Source: Bdellovibrionales bacterium
GTDB lineage: Bacteria > Bdellovibrionota > UBA1018 > CAIMNF01
DNA length: 64,000 nt
Direction of reading: 5' to 3'
NCBI GenBank assembly: GCA_947502835.1
Contig: CANNBJ010000002.1
Span: forward strand, 397,850 to 461,849
A program made the translations under genes and the position numbers. Within the stretch, counting starts at the first letter, position 1. Each line of letters starts with the position of its first letter. The notes under the pieces are model-generated. The model did no database searches. It was not told the origin of the DNA and saw nothing but the letters and a program-made list of their open reading frames with translations. Shown here one piece after another: positions 18,497 to 55,673 of this stretch.

Positions 18497-19666
18497 TCAC
18501 GCCCCCGACTTCAAAATCAAATGAGTAATCTCACTTCTCTTTCCAAGGCGATTCGGGGGGCCCCAAAATCCCGTTCCCCGATTCACATACAGTTGTGTTT
18601 GATCGTTCACCCGGTATAACCCCTCCGAGTACTTCAGAACCGTCTTTACGATGAAGGAATAAGGATAAAACTGCCCCGCATGCGTATGTCCTGAAACCTG
18701 AAGGTCATAGCCTGCCTCGGCTGCCTCCTTGATGCTGAAGGGGTTGTGGGCCAGCAGAATCTTGCAGGTGGCGTTGATTTCATTTTTGCAGGCAGCAAAA
18801 GGGTCACTTCGGTGCGATTCCTCATAACGATGTGCGGAATGGTCGAAGACTCCTGCCAGCAGGAGGTGTTCGTCTCCTGCGTCACTCTTCCGGGTCAGGA
18901 TATGATTCGAGTTCTTGAAGACATGGACGCCGATGCTCTCCAGATGTCGGACCCATTCGTGCACACCCGAGTAATACTCGTGGTTACCCGTGCAGAAATA
19001 GACCCCGCTTGGAGCCTTGAGGCGGCTCAAGGGTTCGATTTCGCTTCTCAGTTGCTCAACTGTGCCGTCCACAAGATCACCCGTGATGAAGATTGCGTCC
19101 GCTTCAAGGGACATCACGCGCTCCACCACGTTCTCAAGGTAATCGCGATGAATGAGTGGGCCGATATGAACATCAGAGATTTGCGCGATTTTAAATCCGT
19201 CAAAAGACTTTGGCAGAGTCCGAAGCTTGATTTCAACCCGTTCAATCAGGGGGCCGGCATTCGCCTCGAACATTCCAAGAACCGACGCAGCGGTCGATCC
19301 GGCAATCAACCCGCGGGGGATGCCTGTGGTCATGAAGATCCGCTTTGCCGGATCAAAAGGCTTGGAAAAGAGCCGAAGGATCTCGACAAACAGGAACACC
19401 AGGAAAACGGTGCCAATCCAGCCGAGCAAAGTGAACTGCGTCCATTGCAAAAAATAATCACCGAGTGAAGTCGCGGGAGTGTTGAGGACCCGATTTGAAA
19501 CGGGCCCTGCAATCATGAGGAGTCCGGAGATCCAGAAGAACGCCGCCATGATCCGGTTTCCCTGCGGCGAAAGTCCAAGGTTCCGTTTCAAGATTCGATA
19601 GGTCAGCCAACACACCAGGAAGGTGACGGTGCTGAAGAAGAGCGCGAAGCGAAGGAGCATGCTCAT
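18497..19666 (-). CDS. membrane-anchored calcineurin-like metallophosphoesterase
   Basis: N-terminal TM helices followed by the phosphoesterase motifs ISDVHIGP, ITGDLVDG and GNHEY. Confidence 0.8.
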   Translation of the reverse strand: MSMLLRFALFFSTVTFLVCWLTYRILKRNLGLSPQGNRIMAAFFWISGLLMIAGPVSNRVLNTPATSLGDYFLQWTQFTLLGWIGTVFLVFLFVEILRLFSKPFDPAKRIFMTTGIPRGLIAGSTAASVLGMFEANAGPLIERVEIKLRTLPKSFDGFKIAQISDVHIGPLIHRDYLENVVERVMSLEADAIFITGDLVDGTVEQLRSEIEPLSRLKAPSGVYFCTGNHEYYSGVHEWVRHLESIGVHVFKNSNHILTRKSDAGDEHLLLAGVFDHSAHRYEESHRSDPFAACKNEINATCKILLAHNPFSIKEAAEAGYDLQVSGHTHAGQFYPYSFIVKTVLKYSEGLYRVNDQTQLYVNRGTGFWGPPNRLGKRSEITHLILKSGA

Positions 19667-19670
19667 GGGC

Positions 19671-20627
19671 TCAGCCCTGGCTCACGCTCATCATTTTCAT
19701 GAATTTTTCGCGTCGATGCATGAGTTCTTCGCGGGAGAGGCTCTTCAAGCGGCCGATGCTGAAATCCTGAATCGTGAAGCTTGCCATCACCGTCCCGTAG
19801 ACCACCGCGCGCCGGAGAAGCTGATCCCAGCCATTGGGATCGAGCTGCATCATATCGCGCTTGGCGCCATTCTCGGCAAGGTAGCCCACCACTGCGCCCG
19901 CGAAGCTGTCGCCTGCGCCGGTTGGATCAATCACCTCGTCAACAAGGTACGCGGGTGCGAGAAAGGCGCCGTTCGGAGTAAAGAGCGCCGACCCGTATTC
20001 GCCCCGCTTGATGATGATGTTGGTGGGGCCCATGGTTTGGATTTTTCGCGCCGCCTTTTCAAGGCTCTTCTCGTCAGAGAGCAGGAATGCTTCCTTTTCA
20101 TTGATGCACAGGAGGTCCACCCGCTTCAGGGTTTCTTTCAGCTCCGCAGGCTTCCCTGTGATCCAGAAGTTCATCGAGTCGCAGGCGACCAACTCGTGTC
20201 CGTTCACCTGGTTCAAAACCTGTTGCTGCAGAACCGGATCAATGTTGGCAAGAAACACAACCGGACAGGACTTGTGGGTTTCCGGAAGTCTCGGGTCAAA
20301 ATGTTCGAAAACATTGAGCGCGGTCGCCAGGGTTTTAGCTTCATTCAGGTTGGTGTCGTACTCTCCGACCCAATGGAAGGTCTTGCCTTTCGCAACCTGG
20401 ATCCCGCTGACATCGATGTCACGCTTGCTGAGAAAACTCAGGTGGTCCTGCGGAAAATCATCTCCCACCACGGCCACGATCTTAATCGGCGAGAAGAGGG
20501 ATGCGGCCAAGGAAAAGTAATTCACGGATCCGCCCAAGACCTGATCGGCACGTCCTGCGGGGGTGCGTACAGAGTCAAATGCCATGGAGCCAACTGTCAA
20601 AATAGGGCGGTTTTTCTTGGATTGCAT
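19671..20627 (-). CDS. PfkB-family carbohydrate/nucleoside kinase
   Basis: The DPTGAGDSFAGAVVGYL motif of the ribokinase/PfkB superfamily. Confidence 0.8.
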   Translation of the reverse strand: MQSKKNRPILTVGSMAFDSVRTPAGRADQVLGGSVNYFSLAASLFSPIKIVAVVGDDFPQDHLSFLSKRDIDVSGIQVAKGKTFHWVGEYDTNLNEAKTLATALNVFEHFDPRLPETHKSCPVVFLANIDPVLQQQVLNQVNGHELVACDSMNFWITGKPAELKETLKRVDLLCINEKEAFLLSDEKSLEKAARKIQTMGPTNIIIKRGEYGSALFTPNGAFLAPAYLVDEVIDPTGAGDSFAGAVVGYLAENGAKRDMMQLDPNGWDQLLRRAVVYGTVMASFTIQDFSIGRLKSLSREELMHRREKFMKMMSVSQG

Positions 20628-20639
20628 AGGTGGCCAAGT

Positions 20640-21221
20640 CTAATAGCGGATCTCCTTCGGGTCAACGAATTTGGTCCGTGGACGGGTTTTCGGGGAAGTG
20701 GGAATCGGATTCGCTTCCAGCAGAATTCTCATGGATTCGAGTCCACTCAGCGAGATCGGAATCCTGCTCCACTCCTTGGGCGCGGGGCAAGGGAAATCCC
20801 GATGCCACACCTCGAAATGTTCGCCCAGTGCGCCATGGGGAAAGACGAGCGTTTGCAGACCCGGACTCATCCGGACTTCGAGTGTCTCTCCCCGGAAAGC
20901 CTCGGAGGAGCGCAGAATCCTTTCACGCTCTTCACCCGATTCGATCGGTCGATAGCCGAAAAAGCGCAGGATCGCTCGCCAGAAAGAGGCATCGGGTCGA
21001 TGGGAGCTCCTGTATTCAATGATTGTCATTTCACGAGTGGAAACCATGCTTGCCCACGCAAAGATGCACGAACCCATGAGAAGGGCAATGCCCCTGAGCC
21101 ATCTCAGGGTTTCAGGCGCGAGTTTTGGTTTTGAATCGCCTCCTTGAATCCGCGATAGCGTTTCAGAAAACCACGCTCGAATCCGATCAAGGCGACGAGG
21201 ATCAAGAAGCTCCATACGCAC
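20640..21221 (-). CDS. hypothetical membrane protein (fourth gene of the Flp/TadE cluster)
   Basis: A co-directional ORF with one predicted TM helix (LRWLRGIALLMGSCIFAWASMV). No family assignment. Confidence 0.35.
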   Translation of the reverse strand: MRMELLDPRRLDRIRAWFSETLSRIQGGDSKPKLAPETLRWLRGIALLMGSCIFAWASMVSTREMTIIEYRSSHRPDASFWRAILRFFGYRPIESGEERERILRSSEAFRGETLEVRMSPGLQTLVFPHGALGEHFEVWHRDFPCPAPKEWSRIPISLSGLESMRILLEANPIPTSPKTRPRTKFVDPKEIRY

Positions 21222-21248
21222 ATCTCCACGAGGCTTGAGCCTGCATTC

Positions 21249-21746
21249 CTACCGCGACCATCGGACGGACCATTCATGGTGCTTCTCCGCTTGGATCAGG
21301 GCTTCGGTTTCCAATTTTGCCACGCGGATTCCAAGCCGGATTTCCTTTGGCAAGGCCAAAAGGGATGCTGTGGTTTCAGCCTCAAACACAGTGGCGCCCG
21401 GACTGAGCACTTTGAAGTCGAAGTCTGGAAAAATGCCCCGAAACGGCTGATTTCGGAGGCCGCATCCAAGACCGGGAAAGGTATTCCATCGGACCCGCCT
21501 CTCGTTCCAAGCGGTCTTGATGGCCCGTTGAATCACGGATTCGGCAGTGATGAGTTTCCCGAACAACTCAAGAGCCATTGGTCCCGATGGAGTTGCAAGC
21601 AAGGGAAGGGTGGCAAGCCGGGCTGCCTCGATTCTCCGGTAGGATGCTGAAAGATCATTCAACAAGTGGCGAAGAAGGTGCGCCGCGCCTCCCGCACATC
21701 GATCGAGCGTGATCTGTCGTTGGGCGATGGCCCGAATGTGGATCAT
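21249..21746 (-). CDS. hypothetical protein (third gene of the Flp/TadE cluster)
   Basis: The ATG at 21746 lies immediately after the TadE-like stop. The longer track ORF 21249..22127 overlaps the TadE-like frame, so only the distal part is called. Confidence 0.3.
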   Translation of the reverse strand: MIHIRAIAQRQITLDRCAGGAAHLLRHLLNDLSASYRRIEAARLATLPLLATPSGPMALELFGKLITAESVIQRAIKTAWNERRVRWNTFPGLGCGLRNQPFRGIFPDFDFKVLSPGATVFEAETTASLLALPKEIRLGIRVAKLETEALIQAEKHHEWSVRWSR

Positions 21747-21748
21747 GG

Positions 21749-22099
21749 TCAATCCGAACCCTGCTCCGAGGAGGAAGACGAGGAGTGTGACAGCTCCCCC
21801 CAAAGCGAGGAAGCCCTCCCGACCCATCCCTGAAAAGGGGAAAGAGGATCCGGACTTTCGAGATCGCGAAGGGGACTCAGGGATACGGTCTCTGTCACCC
21901 CACTTCTGCAAACGATTTCCACCTTCACCGGTCGATTTTCCTGAATCAGGCGCGCCCTTGCCTCGAGGAATGCAAGTCGGGCGCATCGGGCACGCTGATA
22001 CTCCAGGCCTCCCCAATGAAGGATCCCCGCAATCAGGGGAAGGATCAGGACAAGCAGTACGATCGAGTGTTCGATCAGGATCTGGCCTTTCCGGTTCAT
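21749..22099 (-). CDS. TadE-like pseudopilin
   Basis: N-terminus MNRKGQILIEHSIVLLVLILPLIAGIL: a G followed by x4 then E prepilin-type site and a hydrophobic helix, matching the TadE-like domain pattern. The ATG overlaps the Flp stop (ATGA). Confidence 0.5.
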   Translation of the reverse strand: MNRKGQILIEHSIVLLVLILPLIAGILHWGGLEYQRARCARLAFLEARARLIQENRPVKVEIVCRSGVTETVSLSPLRDLESPDPLSPFQGWVGRASSLWGELSHSSSSSSEQGSD

Positions 22100-22266
22100 G
22101 GCACATGGATTTGTTGAAGGTGTTCATTCACGGTCTCCAGCTTGGCTTTGATCGTTGTTCCAAGGGTCTTCGATGCTGCAATCGAGCCCACCACGATCAA
22201 CATGGCAAGGATCATGTACTCGCTGAGGCCTTGCCCGGATTGGTTTCGGATGAGGGTTGGTTTCAT
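22096..22266 (-). CDS. flp: Flp/Fap family type IVb pilin (56 aa; not in the ORF track)
   Basis: Manual translation: MKPTLIRNQSGQGLSEYMILAMLIVVGSIAASKTLGTTIKAKLETVNEHLQQIHVP. It carries the Flp motif (G x4 EY, then LIxxLIxV...LGTxI). An AGGAG RBS lies 9 nt upstream of the ATG. The gene is translationally coupled to the TadE-like gene. Confidence 0.7.
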   Translation of the reverse strand: MKPTLIRNQSGQGLSEYMILAMLIVVGSIAASKTLGTTIKAKLETVNEHLQQIHVP

Positions 22267-22303
22267 TTCAGTGTACTCCTTCGGGACATGCCATCTTCAA
22301 AAA

Positions 22304-22339
22304 GCGGGCCAAAGTCCGACCGGTTTGACTTCGGCCCGC
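22304..22339. promoter_or_regulatory. 13-bp-arm inverted repeat in the flp/SPOR divergent intergenic region
   Basis: GCGGGCCAAAGTC then 10 nt then GACTTCGGCCCGC (one mismatch). It sits between the flp start (22266) and the SPOR gene start (22363). It is a candidate operator or 5'-UTR hairpin. Confidence 0.3.
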
Positions 22340-22362
22340 CATCTGGGCACAATCGAGGCAAG

Positions 22363-22968: not shown

Positions 22969-23964
22969 TCAGCTCTTGCGCTTTTGGGCATTCAGTTTTT
23001 CAAGCTCGGTCAAGAGCCCGAACGCCCGATACATGAAAATGATGTTTTTTCCGTCGTAGTCAAGGAGGACCTCTTCGCCCGAGACCAGGGTGATGTTCTT
23101 GATGAATCCTTGATCCAGCAACTCCTGCGCAAAACCGAGCGGGATTGCATTTGATTTCAATACCGGTCCGAGATTGAGTCGCTCCATGCCTTCTTCCAGG
23201 GGGGTGGCTTCGGCACGGTTCTGTACGATCAGGGTCAGGACCTTGAAGCCGTTGAGTGAGATTTCCTGCCTTTTTTCATGAGCGGTGAGATTGAGTTCAT
23301 TCAGGAAGTGGATCCATTGATCGAGAAACCGGATGTCGGTAAGAAGAAGGTCTCCCTTCAGGATTTCGATTCCCTTGAATACCTCGATGAGGGAAATCAC
23401 CTTTGCCGCAGGAACTTGAAGGATCTGACCGCTGAATTTCTCGAGGAGTGCGGTCGAAAACTCGATTCCCTCCGAGCTTTGGTTTTTCCCGTATCTGCTG
23501 GCCACAACGAGCAGCCCCGTGCTGAAGCGCAGCAGTTCCTGAATGGTGATGAAGGTGTATTCCTTGGTGCGGTTTCCGTGTTTGTCGATGTCGTACTCGG
23601 TGGAGACATTCTCAAGGATCCTGATGCGGTTGTTCGCGCCCCTCACTCTTGAGGCTATCGTCTTGATGAGGCTTACCAGCCACTCGGGAGCCTGGCCCAA
23701 TGCTGCGTCCAATGCGGGTCTTGTGATTTCGATCACTTCGGTCGTCACCAGGGCTTCGGCGGATGCAGACCGGGGCTGACCATCGAAAAACGAAAGCTCA
23801 CCCACGACTTGTCCTGAGCGGAGTGTTTCGATTTCGATTTTTCCGTCCCCCTTCCGTTTGAAAATCCGGATGGCCCCGCCTTTGATGACGTACATGTTCT
23901 TGGATTGGTCCCCTTCTTCGAAAAGGATGTCTTTTGCCTTCAATATGATTTCTTTGGATGCCAT
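22969..23964 (-). CDS. cyclic-nucleotide-binding domain protein with an uncharacterised C-terminal domain
   Basis: N-terminal cNMP-binding fold (MYVIKGGAIRIFKRKGDGKIEIETLRSGQVVGELSFFDGQPRSASAEA). About 200 aa follow with no Crp-type HTH. Confidence 0.75.
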   Translation of the reverse strand: MASKEIILKAKDILFEEGDQSKNMYVIKGGAIRIFKRKGDGKIEIETLRSGQVVGELSFFDGQPRSASAEALVTTEVIEITRPALDAALGQAPEWLVSLIKTIASRVRGANNRIRILENVSTEYDIDKHGNRTKEYTFITIQELLRFSTGLLVVASRYGKNQSSEGIEFSTALLEKFSGQILQVPAAKVISLIEVFKGIEILKGDLLLTDIRFLDQWIHFLNELNLTAHEKRQEISLNGFKVLTLIVQNRAEATPLEEGMERLNLGPVLKSNAIPLGFAQELLDQGFIKNITLVSGEEVLLDYDGKNIIFMYRAFGLLTELEKLNAQKRKS

Positions 23965-23965
23965 A

Positions 23966-26281
23966 TCACTTTTTCCTCATTTCGATCGACCCATCCCATT
24001 GTTCGGGTGGAGGTGAGTTCCGGAAGTCGTCACAGCGTTCCAGGTAGACTTCGGATGGCTCATCCGCCACCCCGTAAATCTCCTTCGAGAGGACGGAGGC
24101 TTCCCGGAAAAGGGTTGCAGCATCCTCCCAAAGACGCTTCCGGAATGCCGCCTTCCCTTCCTCGAATTTGCCGATGATCCTGGGATCGGTCGGCTGATCG
24201 GAAACGGAGATCAGGCCCACGGCATTCTTCTTGCCCTTGACCTTGACCGTATCGAGAGTCCGGCAATGAAATCGGGTCTGCTCCTGTGCGGGGATCTTCT
24301 CGAGGCATTCTTGTGTGGTCAGGATGTCGCACCCGTAGAGGCGGGTGAGGGACTCGAGTCGGGATGCGAGGTTTACATGGTCTCCGATGACTGTGTAGGC
24401 GAAGATTCGCTTTGAGCCCATGTTCCCGACACTCACGACCCCTGAGTTGATTCCGATTCCCGCACCGACCTCGATTCCGTACCGTTTCTTGAAGTCGGGA
24501 GCGATTTCCTTCAATCGTTTGGTCATTGCCACCGCCGCGGACCAAGCGCGTTCCACATGATCGTCCTGATCCAGCGGAGCTCCCCAGAAAGCCATGATCG
24601 CGTCCCCGATGTATTTGTCGAGGGTTCCCCCGTGTTCAAAAATGATTTCCGTCATTTCCGAAAGGTACTCGTTCAAGAGTTGGGTGAGGGTTTTGGGGTC
24701 CATGTTTTCGGAAAAGGAGGTGAACCCGCGAAGATCACTGAAAAGCACCGTGAGTTCCTTGCGTTCCCCTCCCACCGCGAGACGCGAGGGGTCCTTGAGA
24801 ACAAGGTCCACCACCTGGGGAGCGAGGTATTTGGAAAAAGCATCCCGGACAAATTTCTTCTTTCGCTCCTCGAGAATGTACCGGACGGAGAGAATCAATC
24901 CGAAGATCGCAAGGATCTCGAGAAACAGGAAAGCAGTGGGGAGATTGATGTGGTTTCCAAACAAGAGCCGGATGTCGATCCACCCGAATCCCGCCATGAA
25001 TGAGGTGAACAAAATCAGGCTCGGAATGGCTTGAAGGGTGGAAAACGCCCACGAAAAGAGAAGCCCCAGCACGATGAGCGAGGCCAGCGGGAGCCAAGGC
25101 ATTCCGATTCCGCTTGCGGAACGAAGCTCATCGCGGTCGATCAGGTTGCCGGCGGCGGTTGCGTGACCCTCCACGCCCGGCGTATTGAAGTCGAAGGGGA
25201 ATGCCCGCATGTCATAGATTCCCGTGGCGGAGGTGCCGAAAAACACATGGGAATCCTTGAAGATCTCTCGATCTGCCGGACTGCCGGATTCAAGAGTCCG
25301 GAACAAGTCGATCACATTCACATACTTGAAGGAACGGCTCTTTCCCTTAAAATTCAGATTGATGTAGCCCACGGGTGTGATGGCGATGGGATTCCCCGGA
25401 TCCTTTTCGAAGTAGGCTCTTGAAATCAAGCCATCTGCGGAGAACTCGAGTTTCAACCGGTCGTCACGGGCAAGTTCCGCCAGCTTCAGTCCCAACGACG
25501 GATACACCCGCCCGTTGGCGAAGTTGACGAGACCGTACCGGCGGATATAGCTGTCGGAGTCAGGATTGATCTGAAAGGATCCCGCGTGGAGTGCCGCGTC
25601 CGCGAGAATCGGGATGTTCGAGAATACGCGGACCATGAACTGGAACGGACTTCGATCCTGGATCGCATCGGGAAACCCGTAGGGATCGGGTTGGGCGAAT
25701 TTGGCCAGAGTGGTGTCGATCGTTTGATTCAATTCGGGGTCGTGGATGGGGCATTCTTCTTTCAGTGTGTACCGGGGTTGGCAATAGAGGTCGGCTGCAT
25801 ACCCGAGGACCAGGCGTTTGCGATAGGCTTGGATCACACGGGCAAGGTTCGGATCGCCTTCCAGTTTCCTCGCCTCCGACAAAAGAAACGGTTTTTCCTT
25901 CAAAAGTTCATAAAGCTCATCGGGGACGGTTTTTTCCGCTTCTGAAAAGGTGACATCGAGTGCGAGGGTTTTCGCGCCCAGTTTGAAGATGGCATGGATG
26001 ATGTCGGCATAGGTGTTCCGCGCCCATGGCCACCTTCCGATCAAGCTCACTGAATCATCATCGGCATCGACAATGATGATCTTCCCGGGGGCCGGCTCCG
26101 GCCCGCGGAGACGGAACTTGATGTTGGTCATGAGTCCATTGACGGACTGTGCGATCGGATAAAGTTTGTCGTTCAGTGCGGGATGCAGTTTGCCTTGTTC
26201 GCCCAGGTCGGAGGTGATCTGAAACACCGAAGCGGTCAGAATGATCGGAATCGACAAGGCCCAAAGAGGAAACTTGGTCAT
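23966..26281 (-). CDS. CHASE2-sensor class III adenylate/guanylate cyclase
   Basis: An N-terminal CHASE2 domain with TM helices, then the cyclase catalytic core (LTVLFSDLRGFTSFSE...KYIGDAIMAFWGAP...GINSGVVSVGNMGS...YTVIGDHVNLASRLE). Confidence 0.85.
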   Translation of the reverse strand: MTKFPLWALSIPIILTASVFQITSDLGEQGKLHPALNDKLYPIAQSVNGLMTNIKFRLRGPEPAPGKIIIVDADDDSVSLIGRWPWARNTYADIIHAIFKLGAKTLALDVTFSEAEKTVPDELYELLKEKPFLLSEARKLEGDPNLARVIQAYRKRLVLGYAADLYCQPRYTLKEECPIHDPELNQTIDTTLAKFAQPDPYGFPDAIQDRSPFQFMVRVFSNIPILADAALHAGSFQINPDSDSYIRRYGLVNFANGRVYPSLGLKLAELARDDRLKLEFSADGLISRAYFEKDPGNPIAITPVGYINLNFKGKSRSFKYVNVIDLFRTLESGSPADREIFKDSHVFFGTSATGIYDMRAFPFDFNTPGVEGHATAAGNLIDRDELRSASGIGMPWLPLASLIVLGLLFSWAFSTLQAIPSLILFTSFMAGFGWIDIRLLFGNHINLPTAFLFLEILAIFGLILSVRYILEERKKKFVRDAFSKYLAPQVVDLVLKDPSRLAVGGERKELTVLFSDLRGFTSFSENMDPKTLTQLLNEYLSEMTEIIFEHGGTLDKYIGDAIMAFWGAPLDQDDHVERAWSAAVAMTKRLKEIAPDFKKRYGIEVGAGIGINSGVVSVGNMGSKRIFAYTVIGDHVNLASRLESLTRLYGCDILTTQECLEKIPAQEQTRFHCRTLDTVKVKGKKNAVGLISVSDQPTDPRIIGKFEEGKAAFRKRLWEDAATLFREASVLSKEIYGVADEPSEVYLERCDDFRNSPPPEQWDGSIEMRKK

Positions 26282-44621: not shown

Positions 44622-44663
44622 ATATATTTGCTCTTCCCCGGGACTTCCTCCAAAATTGGAGAT

Positions 44664-46373
44664 ATGTCTCGAAAACTCGTCGAGCTTTTATACAAAGAGC
44701 GACTCATCACCCAGTCCCAGTACTCTGAAGCCGAAGTGATCTTCAGGTCAAACGGGGATGCCATCCGGCAGTTCATTGAACGAAAGCAACTCTCGGAGAG
44801 CAAGCTGCTTCAGTTCCTCGCGCAAAAATTCTCGATGACAGCACTTCCGAATCTGACCAAGTTCGAGATCAAGCCGGACATCATTGCCATGGTCAATCCC
44901 GATCTCGCGCGAAAATCTCAATGCATCCCCATCCGGTACGACCGCGGGATCCTTGTGGTTGCGATCCCCGATCCGACCCAGATCAACCTTCTCGATGATC
45001 TGCGCTTTGCCACCAAACTGAACGTGGAGGCGGTGCTTACGGGCTTCGCCTCGTTTGATCTTTGTTTCATGAAGCATTATGCCGGAACCCAGACCATGGG
45101 CCGGGCGCTTGAGCAATTCAAGAAGGATGCGCAGATCGCAGGAAACAAGGAAGAATCCATTCAATTCATCGACCAGCACCAGGTGCACGAAGTCGGGTCG
45201 GATTCCGCCGAGGATGCTCCGATCATTTCCGTTGTGAACGGAATCCTCACCGAAGCTGTCCGCCTCGGCGCGAGTGACATTCACGTCGAACCCTACGAGA
45301 AAGACTTCCGGGTGCGCTTCCGGATGGATGGAACCCTGGTCGACATCACCCACATTCCGATGGAAATGAGGCGCGCAGTTGTTGCACGTCTCAAGATCAT
45401 GTCCAGGATGGACATCGGGGAATCCCGAGTGCCTCAGGATGGCAGGATCAAGATCAAGATTGGAATCAAGGAGGTCGACTTCCGGGTGAATTCTCTTCCG
45501 ACTCTCTTTGGCGAGAAGGTGGTTCTCCGGATTCTCTCGAAAGGAAACCTGAAGCTTGATTTGCGCACACTCGGGTTTGAGGAAGCACAGCTTGAGATTT
45601 TTCGGCGCGGAATCGCGCAGCCAAACGGAATGGTCCTGGTGACCGGACCGACCGGAAGTGGAAAAACCACCACTCTTTATTCCGCACTCATGGAGTTGAA
45701 CAAGGTCAGTGACAACCTCTCGACCGTGGAAGATCCGGTGGAATACAACCTGGAGGGAATCAATCAAGTCCAGGTGAACAAGGACATTGGTCTCAGTTTT
45801 GCAGCAGTACTGAGAGCCCTCCTTCGTCAGGACCCGGATACGGTGCTGGTCGGAGAGATTCGGGACTTTGAGACGGGCGAGGTTGCCGTACAGGCGGCAC
45901 TGACAGGGCACCTGGTTCTGTCGACTCTTCATACAAACGACACAGTTTCCACCATCACCCGGATGGTGAACATGGGGATTGAGCCGTTTCTCGTGACGGC
46001 ATCTGTGAACACCATCGTTGCACAGCGCCTCCTTCGAACCCTTTGCAAGGCGTGTCGGCAGCAAGTGAAGGTTCCAGCCGAGAAGATCGATGGTCTCGGC
46101 ATTTCGAAAATCGCGAGCTCCGGCAGTTTCTTCCAGTCGAAGGGATGCAAGGAATGCAACATGACCGGCTACAAGGGCCGTGTTGCCATTTACGAGGTTC
46201 TCGAGTTCCATTCGGATCTGAAGGAGATGGTATTGGCGGGGAATACGGCCATTGAAATCAAGAGGGCTGCGATCCAGAACTTCGGATTGCAGACGCTCAG
46301 GGTTTCAGCACTGAAGAAAGCAATGTCGGGACTCACTTCCATTGAAGAAGCCGTGTCGATGACGAGTGAATAG
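44664..46373 (+). CDS. pilB: type IV pilus assembly ATPase PilB (GspE family)
   Basis: T2SSE_N domain, Walker A GPTGSGKTT, Asp/His boxes, and a tetracysteine motif (CKACRQ...CKECNMTGY). Followed directly by pilT and pilC. Confidence 0.9.
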   Translation: MSRKLVELLYKERLITQSQYSEAEVIFRSNGDAIRQFIERKQLSESKLLQFLAQKFSMTALPNLTKFEIKPDIIAMVNPDLARKSQCIPIRYDRGILVVAIPDPTQINLLDDLRFATKLNVEAVLTGFASFDLCFMKHYAGTQTMGRALEQFKKDAQIAGNKEESIQFIDQHQVHEVGSDSAEDAPIISVVNGILTEAVRLGASDIHVEPYEKDFRVRFRMDGTLVDITHIPMEMRRAVVARLKIMSRMDIGESRVPQDGRIKIKIGIKEVDFRVNSLPTLFGEKVVLRILSKGNLKLDLRTLGFEEAQLEIFRRGIAQPNGMVLVTGPTGSGKTTTLYSALMELNKVSDNLSTVEDPVEYNLEGINQVQVNKDIGLSFAAVLRALLRQDPDTVLVGEIRDFETGEVAVQAALTGHLVLSTLHTNDTVSTITRMVNMGIEPFLVTASVNTIVAQRLLRTLCKACRQQVKVPAEKIDGLGISKIASSGSFFQSKGCKECNMTGYKGRVAIYEVLEFHSDLKEMVLAGNTAIEIKRAAIQNFGLQTLRVSALKKAMSGLTSIEEAVSMTSE

Positions 46374-46396: not shown

Positions 46397-47458
46397 ATGG
46401 GAAAACTAACGCTGATTGCATTGCTGAGGGCCATGGTTGAGCAGGATGCATCCGATCTTCACATCACCAATCAAAGTCCTCCCCAGTTCAGGATTCATGG
46501 AAAATTGGCAAAGGCGAAGACGGATCCCCTCACTCCCGAGTCCATCAAGGATCTGGTCTATGAGATTCTGACCGAGTCCCAGAAAAAAACCTTCGAGGCG
46601 AATCACGAACTGGACTTCTCGTTTGGCGTCAAGGATGTCGCTCGATTCAGGGGGAATCTCTTCTTTCAGCGAGGGAGCATGGGCGCGGTCTTCCGGAAGA
46701 TTCCGGTCACGATCCCGGACTTTGATTCGCTTCGTTTGCCTGAAACGATCAAGAAAATCGTACGGCAGCCAAATGGCTTGTTTCTCGTGACCGGACCTAC
46801 GGGATCGGGTAAGTCTACCTCGCTCGCGGCCATCATCGACTTCATCAACCGAGAGGACAATGGGCACATTCTGACAGTTGAGGATCCGATCGAGTTTACC
46901 CATCCGCATCGAAACTGCATCGTGAATCAGCGGGAAGTCGGAACGGATTCACACACATTCCATGATGCCTTAAAGCACGCGCTTCGCCAGGACCCGGACT
47001 TCATTCTGGTCGGGGAATTGCGGGATCTTGAAACGATCGAGATGGCGCTCACCGCCGCCGAAACCGGCCATATGGTTTTTGCGACCATGCACACCAATAG
47101 CGCGGTTCAGACGATTGCGAGGGTTGTGAACGTGTTTCCACCGCACCAACAGGCCCAGATCCGACAGCTTCTCGCTGCGACCCTGGCAGGAGTGATGACC
47201 CAGCAGCTGGTTCCGAATTCGGGAAGGCCCGGTCGTTCGGCAGCCTATGAGCTCATGGTGCCGACTCTTGCGATTCGAAATCTCATCCGCGAGGACAAGA
47301 TGCATCAGGTGTACGGGGTGATGCAATCAGGACAAGCCGGCACAGGAATGCAAACGATGAATCAGGCCCTTGCGGATCTGGTTCGAAAAGGAAACCTTAC
47401 CAAAGCCGATGCGATGGGATACAGCCTTCTCCCAGAAGAGCTCATGAAGATGGTATGA
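46397..47458 (+). CDS. pilT: twitching motility ATPase PilT
   Basis: GPTGSGKST Walker A and the PilT-specific AIRNLIRE motif. 353 aa. Confidence 0.93.
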   Translation: MGKLTLIALLRAMVEQDASDLHITNQSPPQFRIHGKLAKAKTDPLTPESIKDLVYEILTESQKKTFEANHELDFSFGVKDVARFRGNLFFQRGSMGAVFRKIPVTIPDFDSLRLPETIKKIVRQPNGLFLVTGPTGSGKSTSLAAIIDFINREDNGHILTVEDPIEFTHPHRNCIVNQREVGTDSHTFHDALKHALRQDPDFILVGELRDLETIEMALTAAETGHMVFATMHTNSAVQTIARVVNVFPPHQQAQIRQLLAATLAGVMTQQLVPNSGRPGRSAAYELMVPTLAIRNLIREDKMHQVYGVMQSGQAGTGMQTMNQALADLVRKGNLTKADAMGYSLLPEELMKMV

Positions 47459-47469
47459 GGAACGAGTGA

Positions 47470-48702
47470 ATGGCTGAGTACCAGTATGTAGCCCAGGACG
47501 GGGCCGGAAAAAAAGTGGAGGGACGCCTGGAGGCGAACAACGAAGGTGAGCTTCGGATGCTCCTCCGGAGCAAGGGCCTTCGTCCTACACGAATCTCAAA
47601 GGTGGCTCTCGGGCAGATGGATGTCGGTGCCACACTGAAGAGAATGATGGGAGGCGCTGCATCCCTCCCTCCTGATCGTCTGATGAACTTTGTAAAGCAA
47701 TTGCAGACCATGATTTCTTCCGGTGTTCCGCTGGTCCAGGCAATCGAGCTCTTTCTGGACCAGGAATCCCATCCGTACATGAAGATGATTCTCACAACCT
47801 TCCGGGACCGGCTGAATGGAGGAAGTTTTCTTTGGGAATGCATGTCCGCCTATCCGGATGTCTTTGAGCGTGTGTTCGTGGCGCTCGTTCGCGCGGGGGA
47901 GTCATCCGGAACCCTCGATGTGATGTTGAAGCGATCCGGAAAGTACCTGGAGAACTCCTATCGATTGAGGCGTCTGATCAAAAGCTCAATGAACTACCCG
48001 ATTATCGTAACTGCGATTGCGGTCGGGGTGATCACGCTGATGTTGACTCTGGTGATCCCTAAGTTTGAAGAGATGATTGTTTCGGGTGGGGGTGAGCTTC
48101 CCTTGCCGACCAAATTTGTGATTGACCTCTCCCATGGGTTGATCAATCACTTTTTCACAATTGTGCTTGCGCTCGGTGCTGGAGTGTATTTGATTCGCCA
48201 GTATGTCAAAACCGACGAGGGAAAAGCGGTACTTCAAAACATTGCAATGAAGCTGCCGGTCATGGGGCCCTTGATCATTCAAAGCGGGGTTGCGCGTTTC
48301 GCACGAACCATGGGCACACTTCTTTCCTCCGGGGTTCCGATTGTCGATGCTCTTGAGATTTGCAAGGACGCGGCATCTCACATCGCCTACGAGGATGCGA
48401 TTGGGTTGATGAAGCGCGAGGTGGAGCTCGGTGCGTCTTTCAGCAACGCAATGCTCAGGCAACAGGCTTTGTTTCCGAAAATGGCGGTCCAGATGACGGT
48501 TGTGGGTGAAAACACCGGAAATATGGACAAGATGCTCGAGAAGGTGGCTGACTTTTATGAAGAGGAGGTTGAAACCTCCATTCAGGGAATGTTGAAACTG
48601 ATTGAGCCGTTCATGTTGGTTTTCATGGGTGGAATTGTCGGTGGACTCCTGATAGCAATGTATTTGCCTATTTTCCAGATGGCGGGGAATACCGGGAACT
48701 GA
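47470..48702 (+). CDS. pilC: type IV pilus platform protein PilC (GspF family)
   Basis: Two GspF repeats and three TM segments. Sits in the pilB-pilT-pilC synteny. Confidence 0.9.
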   Translation: MAEYQYVAQDGAGKKVEGRLEANNEGELRMLLRSKGLRPTRISKVALGQMDVGATLKRMMGGAASLPPDRLMNFVKQLQTMISSGVPLVQAIELFLDQESHPYMKMILTTFRDRLNGGSFLWECMSAYPDVFERVFVALVRAGESSGTLDVMLKRSGKYLENSYRLRRLIKSSMNYPIIVTAIAVGVITLMLTLVIPKFEEMIVSGGGELPLPTKFVIDLSHGLINHFFTIVLALGAGVYLIRQYVKTDEGKAVLQNIAMKLPVMGPLIIQSGVARFARTMGTLLSSGVPIVDALEICKDAASHIAYEDAIGLMKREVELGASFSNAMLRQQALFPKMAVQMTVVGENTGNMDKMLEKVADFYEEEVETSIQGMLKLIEPFMLVFMGGIVGGLLIAMYLPIFQMAGNTGN

Positions 48703-48743: not shown

Positions 48744-49688
48744 ATGGCGGCGATTGATCAAATCAAGAGACCAATACTCGGCAGATCAGTGAAGATCGAG
48801 GCGTTAAAGCAAATGATCACCCGAGTAGCGCCTGCGAAAACAAACGTTCTGATCATCGGAGAAAGCGGAACCGGGAAGGAGCTTGTTGCCCGGGCACTTC
48901 ATGAATTGAGCCCGGTGAAGGATGGCCCCTTTGTTGCGGTCAATTGCGGCGCGATCCCCGAGAGCTTGATCGAAAGCGAGCTTTTTGGGCATAAGAAGGG
49001 GAGTTTCACGGGGGCGATCGCGGATAAGCCAGGGCTCTTTGAGGCGGCCGATCGAGGCACGCTCTTCTTGGATGAGGTGGGTGAGCTCCCGACCTCCATG
49101 CAGGTCAAACTTTTGAGGGCTCTTCAGGATCGTGCGATCCGCAGAGTTGGCGGAAATGATACGATCAAGATTGATGTGCGCATCGTCGCTGCCACCAACA
49201 AGAATCTCGAAGAAGGTGTAAAGAAGGGTTCATTTCGGGAGGACCTGTACTACAGATTGAATGTGATCATGCTTGAGACTCCGCCGCTTCGGGAGCGGGT
49301 GGGGGATGTTGAGGAGTTGATCAAGGTTTTCTTTGAGCGCTTCAATGAAAAGCAAAAACGAGGTCTTTCGGGTCTTTCCCAAGACGCACTCTCGGTGCTT
49401 CTTTCCCATCAGTGGCCGGGAAATATCCGCGAGCTTGAGAATGTGATGGAGCGTGTGGTGACTCTTGAGTCGGGATCTGAAATCCAAGTTTCAACGCTTC
49501 CCCCCGAGCTGGTCCTTTCGGTGAGACGTGCCCAAGGGCTGCCGCGTGAACTCACGCTTCGGGCGAACTTTGCGCTCGGGCCCATCGACTTGGATGCGGT
49601 TCTTGGAGAAGTGCGAGCCTTTTACGAGCGTGAGGCACTCATTTTTGCGAAAAATGATTTGGCAGCCGCAAAAATCCTCTTCAAATAA
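48744..49688 (+). CDS. sigma-54-dependent activator, AAA+ core only (PilR-like, no receiver, truncated HTH)
   Basis: GESGTGKE Walker A, the GAFTGA-type loop variant ESELFGHKKGSFTGA, and ELENVMER. It starts 12 aa before the AAA+ core. It ends ...NDLAAAKILFK, lacking the Fis-type recognition helix. Confidence 0.8.
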   Translation: MAAIDQIKRPILGRSVKIEALKQMITRVAPAKTNVLIIGESGTGKELVARALHELSPVKDGPFVAVNCGAIPESLIESELFGHKKGSFTGAIADKPGLFEAADRGTLFLDEVGELPTSMQVKLLRALQDRAIRRVGGNDTIKIDVRIVAATNKNLEEGVKKGSFREDLYYRLNVIMLETPPLRERVGDVEELIKVFFERFNEKQKRGLSGLSQDALSVLLSHQWPGNIRELENVMERVVTLESGSEIQVSTLPPELVLSVRRAQGLPRELTLRANFALGPIDLDAVLGEVRAFYEREALIFAKNDLAAAKILFK

Positions 49689-49739: not shown

Positions 49740-50399
49740 TCAGATGCCAGGTTGGCTATTTACCAAAGCGCCGACCTCATTGATTGTCCAAATATCGGGC
49801 AGGTTGGCCCCCCCATTCCTGCCTCCAACGTTTCCTACGCCGCCGATGACGTATTGAGTAGCACTAGTAATTCGACCCTCTGCGCCGAGGGCGGTGCTAG
49901 GTCCGTTAAGAAGACTAGCCACAGGCTGAGGTGCGGTTGCCGGTGCTACAAACGAGTTTGCTGCCCACTGAACGTTTGCGGCAACGCATACTTCTGTAGC
50001 AGGGCCAGCACCACCACCTTGGGGCCAGCCTGCAAAACCATCGCACCGAGTATTCCCGGCAGGTCCACAAAAGTTAGCGGTCAAAACAGCGCCATTAAAC
50101 CCAATGGCGTATCGTGTTTGTCCCGCGCTGGGCTGAAAGCCAGCCTGCTGAATGCAACCAGAGAGGCCGTTTTCAGCACGAAATGATTCCACCGCAGTCC
50201 TGGCAGCGGCAAGGGCAAGCTTCACTTCCGACTGGCGGGACCTCGCCATAAAACTATTGAAACGCGGAATTGCAAGTGTTGCGAGAATCCCGATGATGGC
50301 AACCACCACCATGAGTTCCACCAAAGTGAAACCGGCCTGTGAGCGCAAAACTGATCCCGCACCCCTGGATTTATTTTTGATCACATTACTAATTTTCAT
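49740..50399 (-). CDS. pilA: type IV major pilin PilA with a 23-aa leader
   Basis: [23 protein letters not shown] then the [22 protein letters not shown] prepilin site. A GAGGGG RBS lies 6 nt upstream of the ATG at 50399. The C-terminal region is G/N/A-rich with 4 Cys. Confidence 0.85.
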
Positions 50400-50457
50400 A
50401 TTCACCCCTCGAGAGATTTCTTTTGCTCTCACTTTTGGATAGGATAAGGGACACCGG

Positions 50458-52602: not shown

Positions 52603-53370
52603 ATGCTGAAGTCCACTCTTGTCATTCTTTTTGGATTGATCATTGGAAGCTTCCTGAATGTGGTGATTCACCGTTTGCCGCTTGATCAGTCCGTGGTGAA
52701 GCCCGCGAGCCGGTGCCCTTCCTGCGGAACGGGGCTCAAGTGGTTTCACAATGTGCCCTTGGTGAGCTACCTCTTGCTTCGCGGAAAGTGCGCGGCTTGC
52801 GGAAATCCCATCTCGTGGCGGTATCCGCTCGTGGAGTTCCTGACTGCTTTTTTGTTCTGGGCAAGTTTTCGTGATCTCCCTTTCGGTGTGTTCGAGTTCA
52901 TCTCCCAGTTCAGGATCTGGTTGTTCATTGCTCTTGGTGTTGCGATTGCATTCATCGACCTTGATCACCGGATCATTCCGGATGAGTTGAGTCTCGGAGG
53001 CTGGCTGATCGGGGCCCTCACTGCATATTGGGATTACCGTGCGGGGCTCCCCTCGCTTTTGATTGCCTCTGTAGCAGGATTCGGGTTTTTCTTCCTCTTT
53101 GCCCTTCTCTACGAAAAGGTGACCGGGCGCGCGGGCCTCGGAGGAGGAGACATCAAATTCATGGGGACGATCGGGGTATTTTTGGGCTTCGGAGGCATCT
53201 GGTCGTCCATCATGATCAGTTCGGTTTTGGGCAGCGTGGTCGGGATCGCAATTGCGAAGCTGAATCGATCAGAACAGGCATTGCGTACTGCGATTCCCTA
53301 CGGCCCTTTTCTGGTGGTTGGAGCTCTGGTAGAACTCTTCTTCGAGGTGTCACGATGGATCATCCCCTAG
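52603..53370 (+). CDS. pilD: prepilin peptidase / N-methyltransferase PilD
   Basis: DiS_P_DiS N-domain with CPSCG...CAACG zinc tetracysteine, and the A24 catalytic Asp context (IDLDHRIIPDEL, GGGDIKFMG). Confidence 0.9.
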   Translation: MLKSTLVILFGLIIGSFLNVVIHRLPLDQSVVKPASRCPSCGTGLKWFHNVPLVSYLLLRGKCAACGNPISWRYPLVEFLTAFLFWASFRDLPFGVFEFISQFRIWLFIALGVAIAFIDLDHRIIPDELSLGGWLIGALTAYWDYRAGLPSLLIASVAGFGFFFLFALLYEKVTGRAGLGGGDIKFMGTIGVFLGFGGIWSSIMISSVLGSVVGIAIAKLNRSEQALRTAIPYGPFLVVGALVELFFEVSRWIIP

Positions 53371-53918
53371 AAGATGAGTGGAGAAATTTCGAGCTTTACG
53401 AGAAGATCCGCGTTCGCGAGCGGCGCCAGCGATTTTGGACCATCACTCTTGCGGCTTTTTTGTTTCTGGCCCTTTGCTCCGTGCCAGTGATTCAGGATCG
53501 GCTTCCAAAGTGGCAGTCTTTGGATGCGGCCCTTGAGATTTCCCTGGAGCTTGAGCATCTCAAAACCCGCGCCATCCAGGAAAAACGATCCGCGTGGTTG
53601 CGCTTTTCCGGTCCGGGCGAATTCAGGGTGGATTTTGTCTCTGATTGCGAGTCGAAAGCGGATCCCGTGGTTGAAAAAGTTTCCAGGTGGAAGGATCGCG
53701 AGGGTTCCCTCAAGGTGCTTGTTCGCGAGGAGCTTTCACGCCATTCCATTGCACTTGGTGTGGATGAGATCTGTTTTGACCCGGTTTACGGACTGAGTGG
53801 GGTGAAATCCCGCATTGTTTTGGTGATTGCACCCGTCAAGGACTTGACGGAAGGTCGTTTCGAGCGCGCATCGTACGTCGAGCTCGAAGGGGAATCGGCA
53901 AAAATTTCCATAAATTAG
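53355..53918 (+). CDS. membrane-anchored hypothetical protein between pilD and pilM
   Basis: The ATG at 53355 overlaps the pilD 3' end by 16 nt. One TM helix (FWTITLAAFLFLALCSVPVI). No family assignment. Confidence 0.4.
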   Translation: MDHPLEDEWRNFELYEKIRVRERRQRFWTITLAAFLFLALCSVPVIQDRLPKWQSLDAALEISLELEHLKTRAIQEKRSAWLRFSGPGEFRVDFVSDCESKADPVVEKVSRWKDREGSLKVLVREELSRHSIALGVDEICFDPVYGLSGVKSRIVLVIAPVKDLTEGRFERASYVELEGESAKISIN

Positions 53919-53964: not shown

Positions 53965-55056
53965 ATGGCATCCGCTCATGGAAGGGCAGGAAGTGGTTCC
54001 GGTTTTCTCTCTCGCTTGTTCGGTTCAGGAAAATCCCTGATCGGCTTGAGCGTCGGTGCGTCCTGTACCAAGGCAGTGGAAATCAACACTCGTGGTAAAG
54101 GGTGGACTTTCAAGTCCTTCGAATCGAGTCCTGTGGAGGGTGCTCTTTCGGATCAGCGTGAAATCATCAACCCATCCTCTGTATCCGAGTCGATCCGAGA
54201 TGTCTTCTCAAGAGCGAGGATTTCAACCAAAGATGTGTGCGCTGCTGTAACGGGCAGCGGGGTGATCATCAAAACCCTCACTCTCAGCATCACCAACATG
54301 AAAGAATTGAACGACCAGGTGCTCTGGGAAGCGGAACAATACATCCCCTTCGATATCAATGATGTGGTCGTGGATTACCAGGTCCTCCGGAAACTGAAGG
54401 ACAACCAGGTCGAGGTGATCATTGTGGCGGTGAAGAAGGATTTTCTGGATCAGTACCGGAGTGTCATCGAAAGTGCCAAGCTCAAAATCAATGTATTTGA
54501 TGTGGAAATGTTCGCTCTCCAGAACTGCTTCGAAATGAACTATGATCCTCCCTTGAATCAAGCGGTGTTGTTGGCGGACATTGGTGCGATGAGCACAAAA
54601 ATGGTGATTTGCTCGGAAGGTGTCCCTCTCTTCACGAAGGATTCACCCTACGGCGGAAGCCTCGTGTCGCTTGAAATTCAGCGGGAATTGAAGCTTCCCT
54701 CCATCATGGATGCCGAAGCCTTGAAGATTTCCGGAAATCTTCCGCAGGAGGTTGCCGAGATCGTGAACCGCACCTCCCACACGATCGGTGCGGAGCTCAA
54801 AAAATCCCTCGATTTCTACAATGCATCCTCGGTCGGACCCCCGGTTTCAGTGGTGTTCCTGTCCGGAGGAGCGTCTCGCGCCCCGGGGCTCGTTCAGGTC
54901 GTTGCCGAATATGTGGGGACACCTGTTGAATTCTTGAATCCTTTTGAGAGAGTTCACCCGAATCCGAAAAAGCATACGCCTGAATTTTTGGAAACCATCG
55001 CACGGGAAGCGGTCATTCCGATGGGTCTTGCCATGCGATCGAGGGATGCGAAATGA
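53965..55056 (+). CDS. pilM: type IV pilus assembly protein PilM
   Basis: Actin-like ATPase fold (GLSVGASCTKAVEI..., DIGAMSTKMVI). It is the first gene of the pilMNOPQ block. Confidence 0.85.
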   Translation: MASAHGRAGSGSGFLSRLFGSGKSLIGLSVGASCTKAVEINTRGKGWTFKSFESSPVEGALSDQREIINPSSVSESIRDVFSRARISTKDVCAAVTGSGVIIKTLTLSITNMKELNDQVLWEAEQYIPFDINDVVVDYQVLRKLKDNQVEVIIVAVKKDFLDQYRSVIESAKLKINVFDVEMFALQNCFEMNYDPPLNQAVLLADIGAMSTKMVICSEGVPLFTKDSPYGGSLVSLEIQRELKLPSIMDAEALKISGNLPQEVAEIVNRTSHTIGAELKKSLDFYNASSVGPPVSVVFLSGGASRAPGLVQVVAEYVGTPVEFLNPFERVHPNPKKHTPEFLETIAREAVIPMGLAMRSRDAK

Positions 55057-55673
55057 TCCGGATCAATCTCGCGAAGAAAAAACCGGCATCGATGGGCGGA
55101 GGGGGGATGGGTGCCTCTGTCGGGAGCGGTTTCTCGCTGAAGTCGATTTTCGAGGGTAGAGGCGGGGACATCTGGACTGTGGGCAGCGTTCTCGTAATCC
55201 CGCTCGCTCTGGCCATCGGTGCAAATATTTATTATGACGACTATCTCCTCCAGCGCACGGCCGAGATCCAAAAGCAAATCACGGATCGTGGAAAAGAAAA
55301 GGAAAAGCTCCAACGGGAACTTCTAAGTGTGAAGGGATATGAGGCCATCAAACAACAACTTGAAGAGAATTCCTCGGTAATCCGGAACAAGATCGACACC
55401 ATTGAGAGGCTGATTCGGGACCGCGATTTCGCGACGAAATCCCTGATCACGATGGCCCAGTCCATGCCGAAAGAGATGTGGATTGCCGAATATGCCTTTG
55501 ATGACAGGGGCTATCGAATCAGTGGCTCAAGCCTGGATGCGGGCATGATCTCGGAACTGATGGGGCGTTTGCAAAAGAGCATTTATTTTACAAACCTTCA
55601 GTTGATCTCCAGCTCCTCCACGGACGGACAGGGGATGAAGGCGGATTTCTCGCTTCAAGGCAAGGTGGAATGA
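55053..55673 (+). CDS. pilN: type IV pilus assembly protein PilN
   Basis: Single TM helix followed by a coiled-coil. The start overlaps the pilM stop (ATGA). Confidence 0.75.
   Translation: MIRINLAKKKPASMGGGGMGASVGSGFSLKSIFEGRGGDIWTVGSVLVIPLALAIGANIYYDDYLLQRTAEIQKQITDRGKEKEKLQRELLSVKGYEAIKQQLEENSSVIRNKIDTIERLIRDRDFATKSLITMAQSMPKEMWIAEYAFDDRGYRISGSSLDAGMISELMGRLQKSIYFTNLQLISSSSTDGQGMKADFSLQGKVE

Follow-up and report, generated by a model that had tools for sequence, protein, structure and literature searches.

Detached flp genes and remote minor-pilin clusters

Flp pilin genes that lie outside the tad locus are known from Bdellovibrio-like organisms and provide the closest described parallel to the cassette presented here: five overlapping genes, led by an flp-like prepilin gene, at 20640..22266 on the minus strand of a 64-kb stretch (the window) of contig CANNBJ010000002.1 from a Bdellovibrionales bacterium (GCA_947502835.1). 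In our view the cassette probably supplies pilins and minor pilins to a Tad machine whose genes lie far from it, in another part of the genome. In Bdellovibrio bacteriovorus HD100, flp1 and flp2 lie inside the tad locus, and flp3 (bd3297) and flp4 (bd4000) elsewhere; flp4 was found as an unannotated open reading frame (ORF), is essential for predation and is not FliA-controlled, and flp3 stays silent in the laboratory (Avidan et al. 2017, PMC5430801). The same study placed flp genes outside the tad locus in all Bdellovibrio-like genomes examined and reported TadV to be missing from Bdellovibrio (PMC5430801). Flp1 (Bd0119), a Tad-system pilin of B. bacteriovorus, has been detected by proteomics. 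The tad genes of HD100 are themselves dispersed over several loci, and in E. coli Flp1 is a substrate of the PilD peptidase associated with type IVa pili (T4aP), which cleaves it (Tesseur et al., bioRxiv 10.64898/2026.07.08.737194).

A second parallel comes from Myxococcus, in which "tip" clusters of TadE/F/G-like minor pilins lie remote from the Kil machinery and are proposed to serve a Tad pilus, deployed against prey, as its tip or priming complex (Herrou et al. 2025, PMC12075869). The tip3 cluster of M. xanthus combines the minor pilins kilL3/M3/N3 with KilO, an Flp adapter of 59 amino acids (aa) (PMC12075869). The three minor pilins of such a cluster are predicted to assemble into a heterotrimer, in which the large KilN/TadG backbone bears a distal domain. 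Published work thus already covers flp genes detached from the tad locus, the sharing of PilD and minor-pilin clusters that lie far from their machinery. An earlier note on this DNA, made from the letters alone, had judged the arrangement not to be a standard layout; this has to be withdrawn for the present lineage, since a detached Flp/TadE module, a T4aP cluster nearby and a possibly shared PilD are the published pattern for Bdellovibrio-like organisms.

The cassette and its upstream signals comprise the following features (a slash marks the predicted prepilin or signal peptidase site).

22296..22311, minus strand: -24/-12-like element (TGGCCCG-N4-TTGAA) that precedes the start of flp by about 30 nt
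22276..22280, minus strand: Shine-Dalgarno sequence AGGAG of flp, 9 nt upstream of ATG 22266
22096..22266, minus strand: flp-like prepilin gene, 56 aa, from ATG 22266 to TGA 22096, recognised by motif, conservation and a selected frame
21749..22099, minus strand: gene for a TadE-like prepilin-like protein, 116 aa, G/QILIEH, its start overlapping the flp stop (ATGA)
21249..21827, minus strand: g3, about 192 aa, prepilin-like without Glu5, MGREG/FLALGGAVTLLVFLLGAGFGL, candidate start near 21827
21104..21277, minus strand: gene for a second mini-prepilin, 57 aa, RNAG/SSLVEM, with a hydrophobic helix and a basic tail
20640..21107, minus strand: g4, about 155 aa; a hydrophobic, signal-peptide-like segment (...AWA/S) stands at the N-terminus, without a prepilin motif

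The likeness to flp3 and flp4 of HD100 consists in a small Flp with G-x4-EY, a Bdellovibrio-like host and a position away from the tad locus; in both cases the genome carries T4aP genes, and flp4 there, like flp here, escaped annotation. Unlike flp3 and flp4, for whose surroundings the published accounts describe nothing of the kind (PMC5430801, bioRxiv 10.64898/2026.07.08.737194), flp here is followed by the string of TadE-like, g3, 57-aa and g4 genes. HD100 is a predator, whereas the lineage here is uncultured and known from sequence alone.

Like tip3, the cassette is remote from machinery and joins an Flp-like pilin of about 57-59 aa to several prepilin-like proteins with peptidase sites. 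A short Flp-like adapter inside a remote minor-pilin cluster has its counterparts here in the 56-aa and 57-aa proteins, as an architectural resemblance only. A large subunit like KilN/TadG, bearing a distal domain, is absent from the cassette (g3 has about 190 aa), which differs from tip3 also in its two mini-pilins and its extra non-pilin protein. It also resembles canonical tad/cpa operons (flp-1...tadG of Aggregatibacter, pilA-cpaA-F of Caulobacter) in the order of an Flp with G/xxxxEY followed by pseudopilins with G/xxxxE(F). Those operons include TadV/CpaA, secretin, ATPase and platform genes, whereas none of these is found within 20 kb of the cassette.

A conserved flp gene at the head of the cassette

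The earlier note had drawn attention to an unlisted 56-aa ORF at 22266..22096 (minus) with an AGGAG ribosome-binding site and had read its product as an Flp/Fap pilin. Both the gene and its reading as Flp stand: the ribosome-binding site is present at 22280..22276, the ORF is coding by both codon comparison and conservation, and the motif that defines Flp prepilins is invariant. The product reads MKPTLIRNQSGQGLSEYMILAMLIVVGSIAASKTLGTTIKAKLETVNEHLQQIHVP; with 56 aa it falls in the range of about 50-80 aa that Flp prepilins span. Its prepilin site, SG/QGLSEYMILAMLIVVGSIAA, takes the form G/XXXXEY, after which comes a hydrophobic helix some 20 residues long; cleavage is predicted at SG/QGLSEY and would leave a mature Flp of about 45 aa, without a globular domain. 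The leader is nearly identical to that of Bd0119 Flp1 (NQSGQGLSEY here, ...NESGQGATEY there).

Database searching retrieved 19 homologue clusters, 16 of which are exactly 56 aa long and five of which carry the JGI label "Flp pilus assembly pilin Flp"; an identical protein has already been called on an ENA metagenome contig. A metagenome scan with the Flp alignment returned only 4 contigs, all short. Across the alignment of 20 clusters, Q12-L20 (QGLSEYMIL), L23, V26, S28-A31, G36 and T38 are invariant. The family profile had a single match in the PDB, the Caulobacter Tad pilin PilA (8u1k), which is weak (E=0.71) and aligned from EY onward.

Selection was assessed by aligning the window's cassette with four diverged relatives (L003, L004, L006 and L007 in our numbering of relatives' loci), counting codon differences in each reading frame and comparing among frames the share of those differences that are synonymous, here called the synonymous fraction. 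For flp this fraction is 0.60, against 0.04-0.08 in the other two frames, and conservation with purifying selection extends to at least eight related metagenomic genomes. Because the synonymous excess is confined to the flp frame, flp is conserved and protein-coding rather than an ORF that arose by chance. Given its motif, size, conservation and the family-wide, sub-threshold matches to the Flp_Fap model discussed below, the 56-aa product can with high confidence be regarded as an Flp pilin.

Prepilin-like products in overlapping frames

Purifying selection, in the form of excess synonymous change, is apparent in all five cassette frames. Successive genes overlap, the junctions being in order ATGA, about 79 nt, 29 nt and CTGA. 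The earlier note had counted two further small genes with gaps of 28 nt or less after the TadE-like gene; there are three (g3, the 57-aa gene and g4), and all of them overlap. Four of the products share a basic leader, a Gly, four residues, then Glu or Gly, and about 20 hydrophobic residues. By profile-profile comparison (hhalign), the N-termini of Flp, the TadE-like protein and the 57-aa protein fall in register at Gly and Glu, weakly so, with pairwise E of about 1e-3.

The coupling of flp to the TadE-like gene and the G/QILIE N-terminus of the latter are as the earlier note described them: the overlap of stop and start reads CCATGAAC, and the protein begins MNRKG/QILIEH (MNRKGQILIEHSIVLLVLILPL). 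Its frame has a synonymous fraction of 0.44, compared with 0.09 in other frames, and its length is conserved in five homologues. An exhaustive HMMER search of 1.84 billion representative proteins with the family profile matched only 35, so the family is small and lineage-restricted. The site of the window's protein reads G/QILIEHSIVLLVLILPL. Within these 35 representatives E10 and P21 are nearly invariant, and the consensus retains the TadE hallmarks G/Qx(L)xE(F/H)...LPL...G...E...AR; in remoter members position +6 is Phe (G/QSLIEF in L012, G/QAITEF in L017). The TadE model matches three of the 35 at E<=0.1, including the window's own protein and a protein here numbered P0067 (2.6e-14). The latter is a bona fide TadE (PF07811, 53.5 bits) and is also picked up, if marginally, by the family profile (E=3.4e-4, residues 3-57). 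An AlphaFold2 (AF2) model of the TadE-like protein has a helix at 3-54 and two strands (mean pLDDT 74.6, pTM 0.46), and a Foldseek search of the PDB with this model returned nothing at E<=0.001.

The third gene, g3, begins its predicted mature product with G/FLALG, and its 5' end overlaps the 3' end of the TadE-like gene by about 79 nt. Both frames are selected across that overlap (synonymous fractions 0.34 and 0.40). The hydrophobic N-terminus is conserved in nine relatives, as G/FT(I/V)LG in the deepest. The AF2 model of g3 is a helical hairpin with a small sheet (pLDDT 84.5); the protein had no Pfam match and no informative fold match in the PDB. The 165-aa ORF that the earlier note had taken for this gene was rejected in part, as the hydrophobic N-terminus is encoded upstream of its start. 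Two longer alternatives were also set aside. A 292-aa ORF (21249..22127) found in several public annotations has a frame fraction of 0.09 over the TadE-like region, against 0.44 for the TadE frame, and a -1 frameshift fusing the TadE-like protein to g3 would use a CCCTTTT heptamer of the window that is not kept in L003.

How g3 is initiated is a more intricate matter. The codon at -4 from G/F is ATG in the window and L007, TTG in L004, CTG in L012, ATC in L003 and ATT in L006, and nothing start-like stands at this codon in L017 and L023. ATGs in the g3 frame are found at the flp/tadE junction or at -56/-57; in the window the alternative candidate starts to 21827 are the ATGs at 21986, 22106 and 22127. 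In six of eight relatives the g3 frame is free of stops over the entire TadE-like gene, and the amino acids encoded there are not conserved. Synonymous resampling gave P of 0.002-0.054 per species for this avoidance of stops, which is merely suggestive because stops are depleted generally in a calibration set of 120 ordinary windows of the genome, 8% of them stop-free. At most, the open frame hints that g3 has a long leader under no constraint, or that its translation starts by a non-canonical, coupled route.

The second mini-prepilin is encoded by an ORF that shares 29 nt with the end of g3 and reads MNGPSDGRGRNAG/SSLVEMCVWSFLILVALIGF... It occurs at the same position, with its stop kept, in eight relatives. 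Its frame has a synonymous fraction of 0.43, whereas the N-terminal extension of a 193-aa ORF in the earlier note reaches 0.06; the extension was consequently rejected as part of g4, the 57-aa frame being the one selected there. For the same reason g4, read as a small exported protein, starts near 21107. Its own synonymous fraction is 0.28, and ahead of its first ATG the Arg and Leu codons change synonymously, so that the encoded residues are kept. Four species have CTG as the codon overlapping the 57-aa stop (CTGA), and L006 has ATG (TAATG, about 11099). The start of g4 is likely this CTG, at 21105-21107, overlapping the TGA of the 57-aa ORF, and the CTGA overlap suggests termination-reinitiation coupling with a non-AUG start. 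No family match to g4 was obtained in hidden Markov model (HMM) scans, and NCBIfam gave none for the small cassette proteins.

A stable chromosomal feature

The gene order CinA, VTT, CHASE2-guanylate cyclase, cNMP-binding, SPOR (minus), flp, tadE-like, g3, 57-aa, g4, PfkB, Metallophos is held in full in L001-L007, L011, L012 and L015, where contigs reach far enough. The core from SPOR (minus) through flp, tadE-like and g3 to g4 is also present in L023, where the identity of the TadE-like protein is 26%, and L017 has the same flp-to-g4 string on a short contig. The NCBI titles of these relatives are "Bdellovibrionales bacterium" and "Oligoflexia bacterium" metagenome-assembled genomes, which places the cassette in an uncultured Bdellovibrionales/Oligoflexia lineage. 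Its carriers include GCA_018969905.1, CANGWP01, CAIOKW01, GCA_010029165.1 and a contig of 528 kb, ERZ3460577 NODE_5.

The earlier note had allowed that a canonical tad locus might directly adjoin the cassette. Machinery was sought in relatives at 16 loci (L001-L016), in stretches of up to 10 kb on each side, and these held no homologues of T2SSE, T2SSF or secretin, no adjacent tad operon and no T4aP homologues. The cassette is a stable chromosomal feature and is not beside a tad locus in any examined locus.

Pilus machinery in the window

The window does hold a full set of T4aP genes, as the earlier note had reported, at 44.6-58.8 kb and hence 22-36 kb from the cassette.

44628-46373: PilB
46397-47458: PilT
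47470-48702: PilC
48744-49688: sigma-54 activator, within the T4aP set
49740-50432, minus strand: N_methyl pilin (T4a), by Pfam
52603-53367, plus strand: PilD-type prepilin peptidase with a GGGDIKF motif (A24_N_bact 7.5e-36, Peptidase_A24 1.2e-15)
53965-55673: PilM and PilN
55670-56754: probable PilO and PilP
56755-58224: PilQ
58221-58820: TPR protein, at the end of the set

PilD is the sole A24 peptidase seen in the window and a candidate processing enzyme for the cassette's prepilins; its N-terminal A24_N_bact domain marks it as a PilD type, unlike the TadV/CpaA of canonical operons. Its ORF is overlapped in another frame by a 296-aa ORF (53028-53918) without a Pfam match, which, being longer, hides PilD from a gene picker that prefers the longest ORF.

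Pfam scans took in nearly all of the approximately 57 large ORFs of the window, and PilB, PilT, PilC and PilQ were run by phmmer against its six-frame translation. Beyond PilB, PilT, PilC and PilQ themselves, these searches of the window revealed no T2SSE ATPase, T2SSF platform protein or secretin, in agreement with the earlier note's statement that no Tad ATPase, secretin or platform gene is present in the 64 kb. Co-location of flp with a Tad machine (TadA/CpaF, TadBC, RcpA, TadV) was accordingly seen neither in the window nor in the 16 relatives' loci.

A probable remote Tad module and its rivals

The earlier note had left two readings side by side: a distal cassette for a tad locus elsewhere, or Flp-type subunits serviced by the T4aP system. 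The first is the better supported. The second finds backing in another species as far as the peptidase step, and not beyond it. The precedents in B. bacteriovorus, where flp genes lie outside the tad locus, tad genes are dispersed, TadV is missing and PilD cleaves Flp1, make it most likely that the cassette provides pilins and minor pilins, from a remote position, to a Tad machine whose genes are located elsewhere.

Several observations weigh against it. The Tad machinery has not been found for this genome, in which the 64-kb window was searched. The 56-aa protein scores 20.8 bits (E=3.4e-4) on Flp_Fap (PF04964), below the curated cut-off of 32.2 bits, and the 116-aa protein scores 14.7 bits (E=0.034) on Pfam TadE (PF07811), below the threshold of 22.9 bits; the TadE model found no match among five TadE-like proteins translated from relatives. 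The -12 block of the -24/-12-like element reads GA where the canonical sequence is GC (A for C), which keeps its assignment to sigma-54 tentative. Finally, the surroundings differ from those of flp4: bd2719, which adjoins it, is an RHS/YD-repeat element by its description, whereas SPOR and cNMP-binding genes flank the cassette here. Avidan et al. assigned flp4 orthologues by the flanks bd2719 and bd2720, and, judged by the description of the neighbour, flp here does not share them. A contig scan with the cNMP-binding neighbour as query found 4 loci, none from B. bacteriovorus.

The two HMM shortfalls differ in what they imply. Flp_Fap matches 16 of the 20 Flp family members at E<=0.01, and validated Flp1 of B. 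bacteriovorus (Bd0119, its sequence taken from the supplement of PMC5430801 for calibration) scores 15.1 bits, under the 20.8 bits obtained here. As a validated pilin reaches 15.1 bits only, the Flp_Fap cut-off is too strict for the pilins of this group, and the Flp identity put forward in the earlier note is upheld by the invariant motif even though its score falls below that cut-off. The TadE assignment fared less evenly: the N-terminal motif supports it and the PF07811 score does not. By function the 116-aa protein can reasonably be labelled a "TadE-like prepilin", short of assigning it to PF07811.

Assembly by the T4aP machine is the first rival to be weighed. PilBCMNOPQ might not only process the subunits but also assemble them as unusual type IVa minor pilins, and there is a good deal in the locus to invite this: a complete T4aP set with PilD 22-36 kb off on the same contig, no Tad gene visible in the window or in L001-L016, a PilD that is common to both systems in B. 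bacteriovorus, and a g3 N-terminus (G/F, or G/FT in deep relatives) that resembles pilins of T4a and type II secretion systems. Against these stand the Flp signature of the lead protein, with Tyr after Glu5, about 45 aa in the mature form and no globular domain, and the N_methyl pilin that the T4aP cluster already possesses. To our knowledge, all characterised pilins with the Flp signature are assembled by Tad machines. The cassette, moreover, has no T4aP gene as a neighbour in the window, the stretches of up to 10 kb on each side in L001-L016 contain no T4aP homologue, and experimental precedent covers the peptidase step only. We regard assembly by the T4aP machine as improbable.

The cassette might instead encode small bitopic inner-membrane or periplasmic proteins that serve the adjacent SPOR, PfkB and metallophosphoesterase genes, in which case G-x4-E would be a relic or a convergence. 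All HMM matches are indeed sub-threshold, the fold searches are uninformative, tad genes are absent nearby (L001-L016), and synteny with SPOR, PfkB and Metallophos is strict where contigs reach. Such a role would have to accommodate four consecutive products with class-III signal architecture in register, Gly and Glu positions that are invariant or nearly so, an Flp leader that matches validated Bdellovibrio Flp1 (SGQGxxEY) and a TadE-like family profile that reaches true TadE; PfkB, for its part, has its own conserved ribosome-binding site and promoter-like site at the end of g4. A function of this sort, unconnected with a filament, has little probability in our estimation.

A decaying, non-functional remnant of a former tad operon, which the detachment from any machinery, the unusual start codons of g3 and g4 and the laboratory silence of B. 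bacteriovorus flp3 might bring to mind, is highly implausible given excess synonymous change in five of five frames, gene lengths and motifs kept across relatives down to 26% identity, and no frame disruption seen.

Expression and possible role

On the favoured reading, that of a module remote from its Tad machine, the five genes would be transcribed from the conserved -24/-12-like element upstream of flp and their expression would be coupled. This element reads TGGCCCGCTTTTTGAA. Its TGG and TTGAA blocks (TGGYYCG-N4-TTGAA) are invariant and at fixed spacing in seven relatives, and the bases between them vary. Nothing else in the window matches the pattern, for which chance alone would give 0.29 matches. 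Tentatively, it can be considered a candidate sigma-54-type promoter of the cassette. Neither conserved -10 nor TAAA/GCCGATAA elements, as expected of sigma-70 or FliA promoters, were found upstream of flp, and the region upstream of the T4a pilin gene showed no clear sigma-54 promoter.

The prepilins would then be cut after Gly by PilD, encoded 30 kb away, as for B. bacteriovorus Flp1 (site SGQGATEY), and a Tad machine encoded elsewhere in the genome would assemble the subunits. The likeliest role would be that of an accessory or priming (tip or adapter) set, or of a specialised Flp filament for interaction with prey; B. bacteriovorus flp4 and the tip3-kilO cluster of Myxococcus may serve as models. 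A bolder version can be envisioned, in which the cassette is a self-contained priming or tip module of a predator's Tad pilus, made up of two mini-pilins, a TadE-like protein and a capping g3 that lacks Glu5 and whose frame is open across the TadE-like gene (as an overprinted leader or through a non-AUG coupled start), matured by PilD and switched by sigma-54; taken with all its parts, this version seems unlikely to us. Should the cassette be a tip or priming set, it would present a small and conserved candidate for the means by which these bacteria tailor their Tad pili. The detached-pilin pattern of cultured Bdellovibrio, in any case, now also covers an uncultured freshwater Bdellovibrionales/Oligoflexia lineage.

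Neighbouring genes and public annotation

Upstream, a SPOR-domain gene is divergent from flp and starts at 22357. A conserved GAAGTCAA adjoining the sigma-54-like element is the -35 (TTGACT) of this divergent gene. Just beyond it, at 22969-26281 (minus), are a CHASE2-guanylate/adenylate cyclase of 771 aa and a cNMP-binding protein of 331 aa, a pair conserved in every relative with a contig reaching that far. These two may work as a pair in cyclic-nucleotide signalling and regulate the cassette.

Downstream, the string continues into the kinase and the membrane phosphoesterase that the earlier note had recognised.

19671-20627, minus strand: PfkB-family kinase, downstream of g4
18497-19666, minus strand: membrane metallophosphoesterase (LpxG/YaeI-like), downstream of PfkB

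The last codons of g4 (..DPKEIRY) and the bases that follow, 20637-20665 (minus), are almost invariant at the nucleotide level across relatives. This segment holds a promoter-like TTGACC-17-TAGACT and the AAGGAG ribosome-binding site of PfkB, and with a promoter-like site and ribosome-binding site of its own, PfkB may not depend on the cassette for its expression. In two more distant relatives the gene after the metallophosphoesterase encodes a flagellin (L006 13725-14597 and L015 4570-5442, both minus); the corresponding position in the window is occupied by an unrelated 199-aa ORF without a Pfam match.

Pilin genes of 56-57 codons are still missed or mis-framed by gene callers, and the public calls at these loci differ in four ways. 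The flp gene is called in L001, L003, L006 and L007 and missed in L002; the 57-aa ORF is called on L001 only and missed on L002, L003, L004, L006 and L007. An over-extended 191-aa g4 stands in place of the 57-aa ORF in the public calls for L002 and L003. The SPOR gene call of L002 (5997-6860, minus) is stretched to 287 aa across flp on the opposite strand, and flp there is left uncalled.

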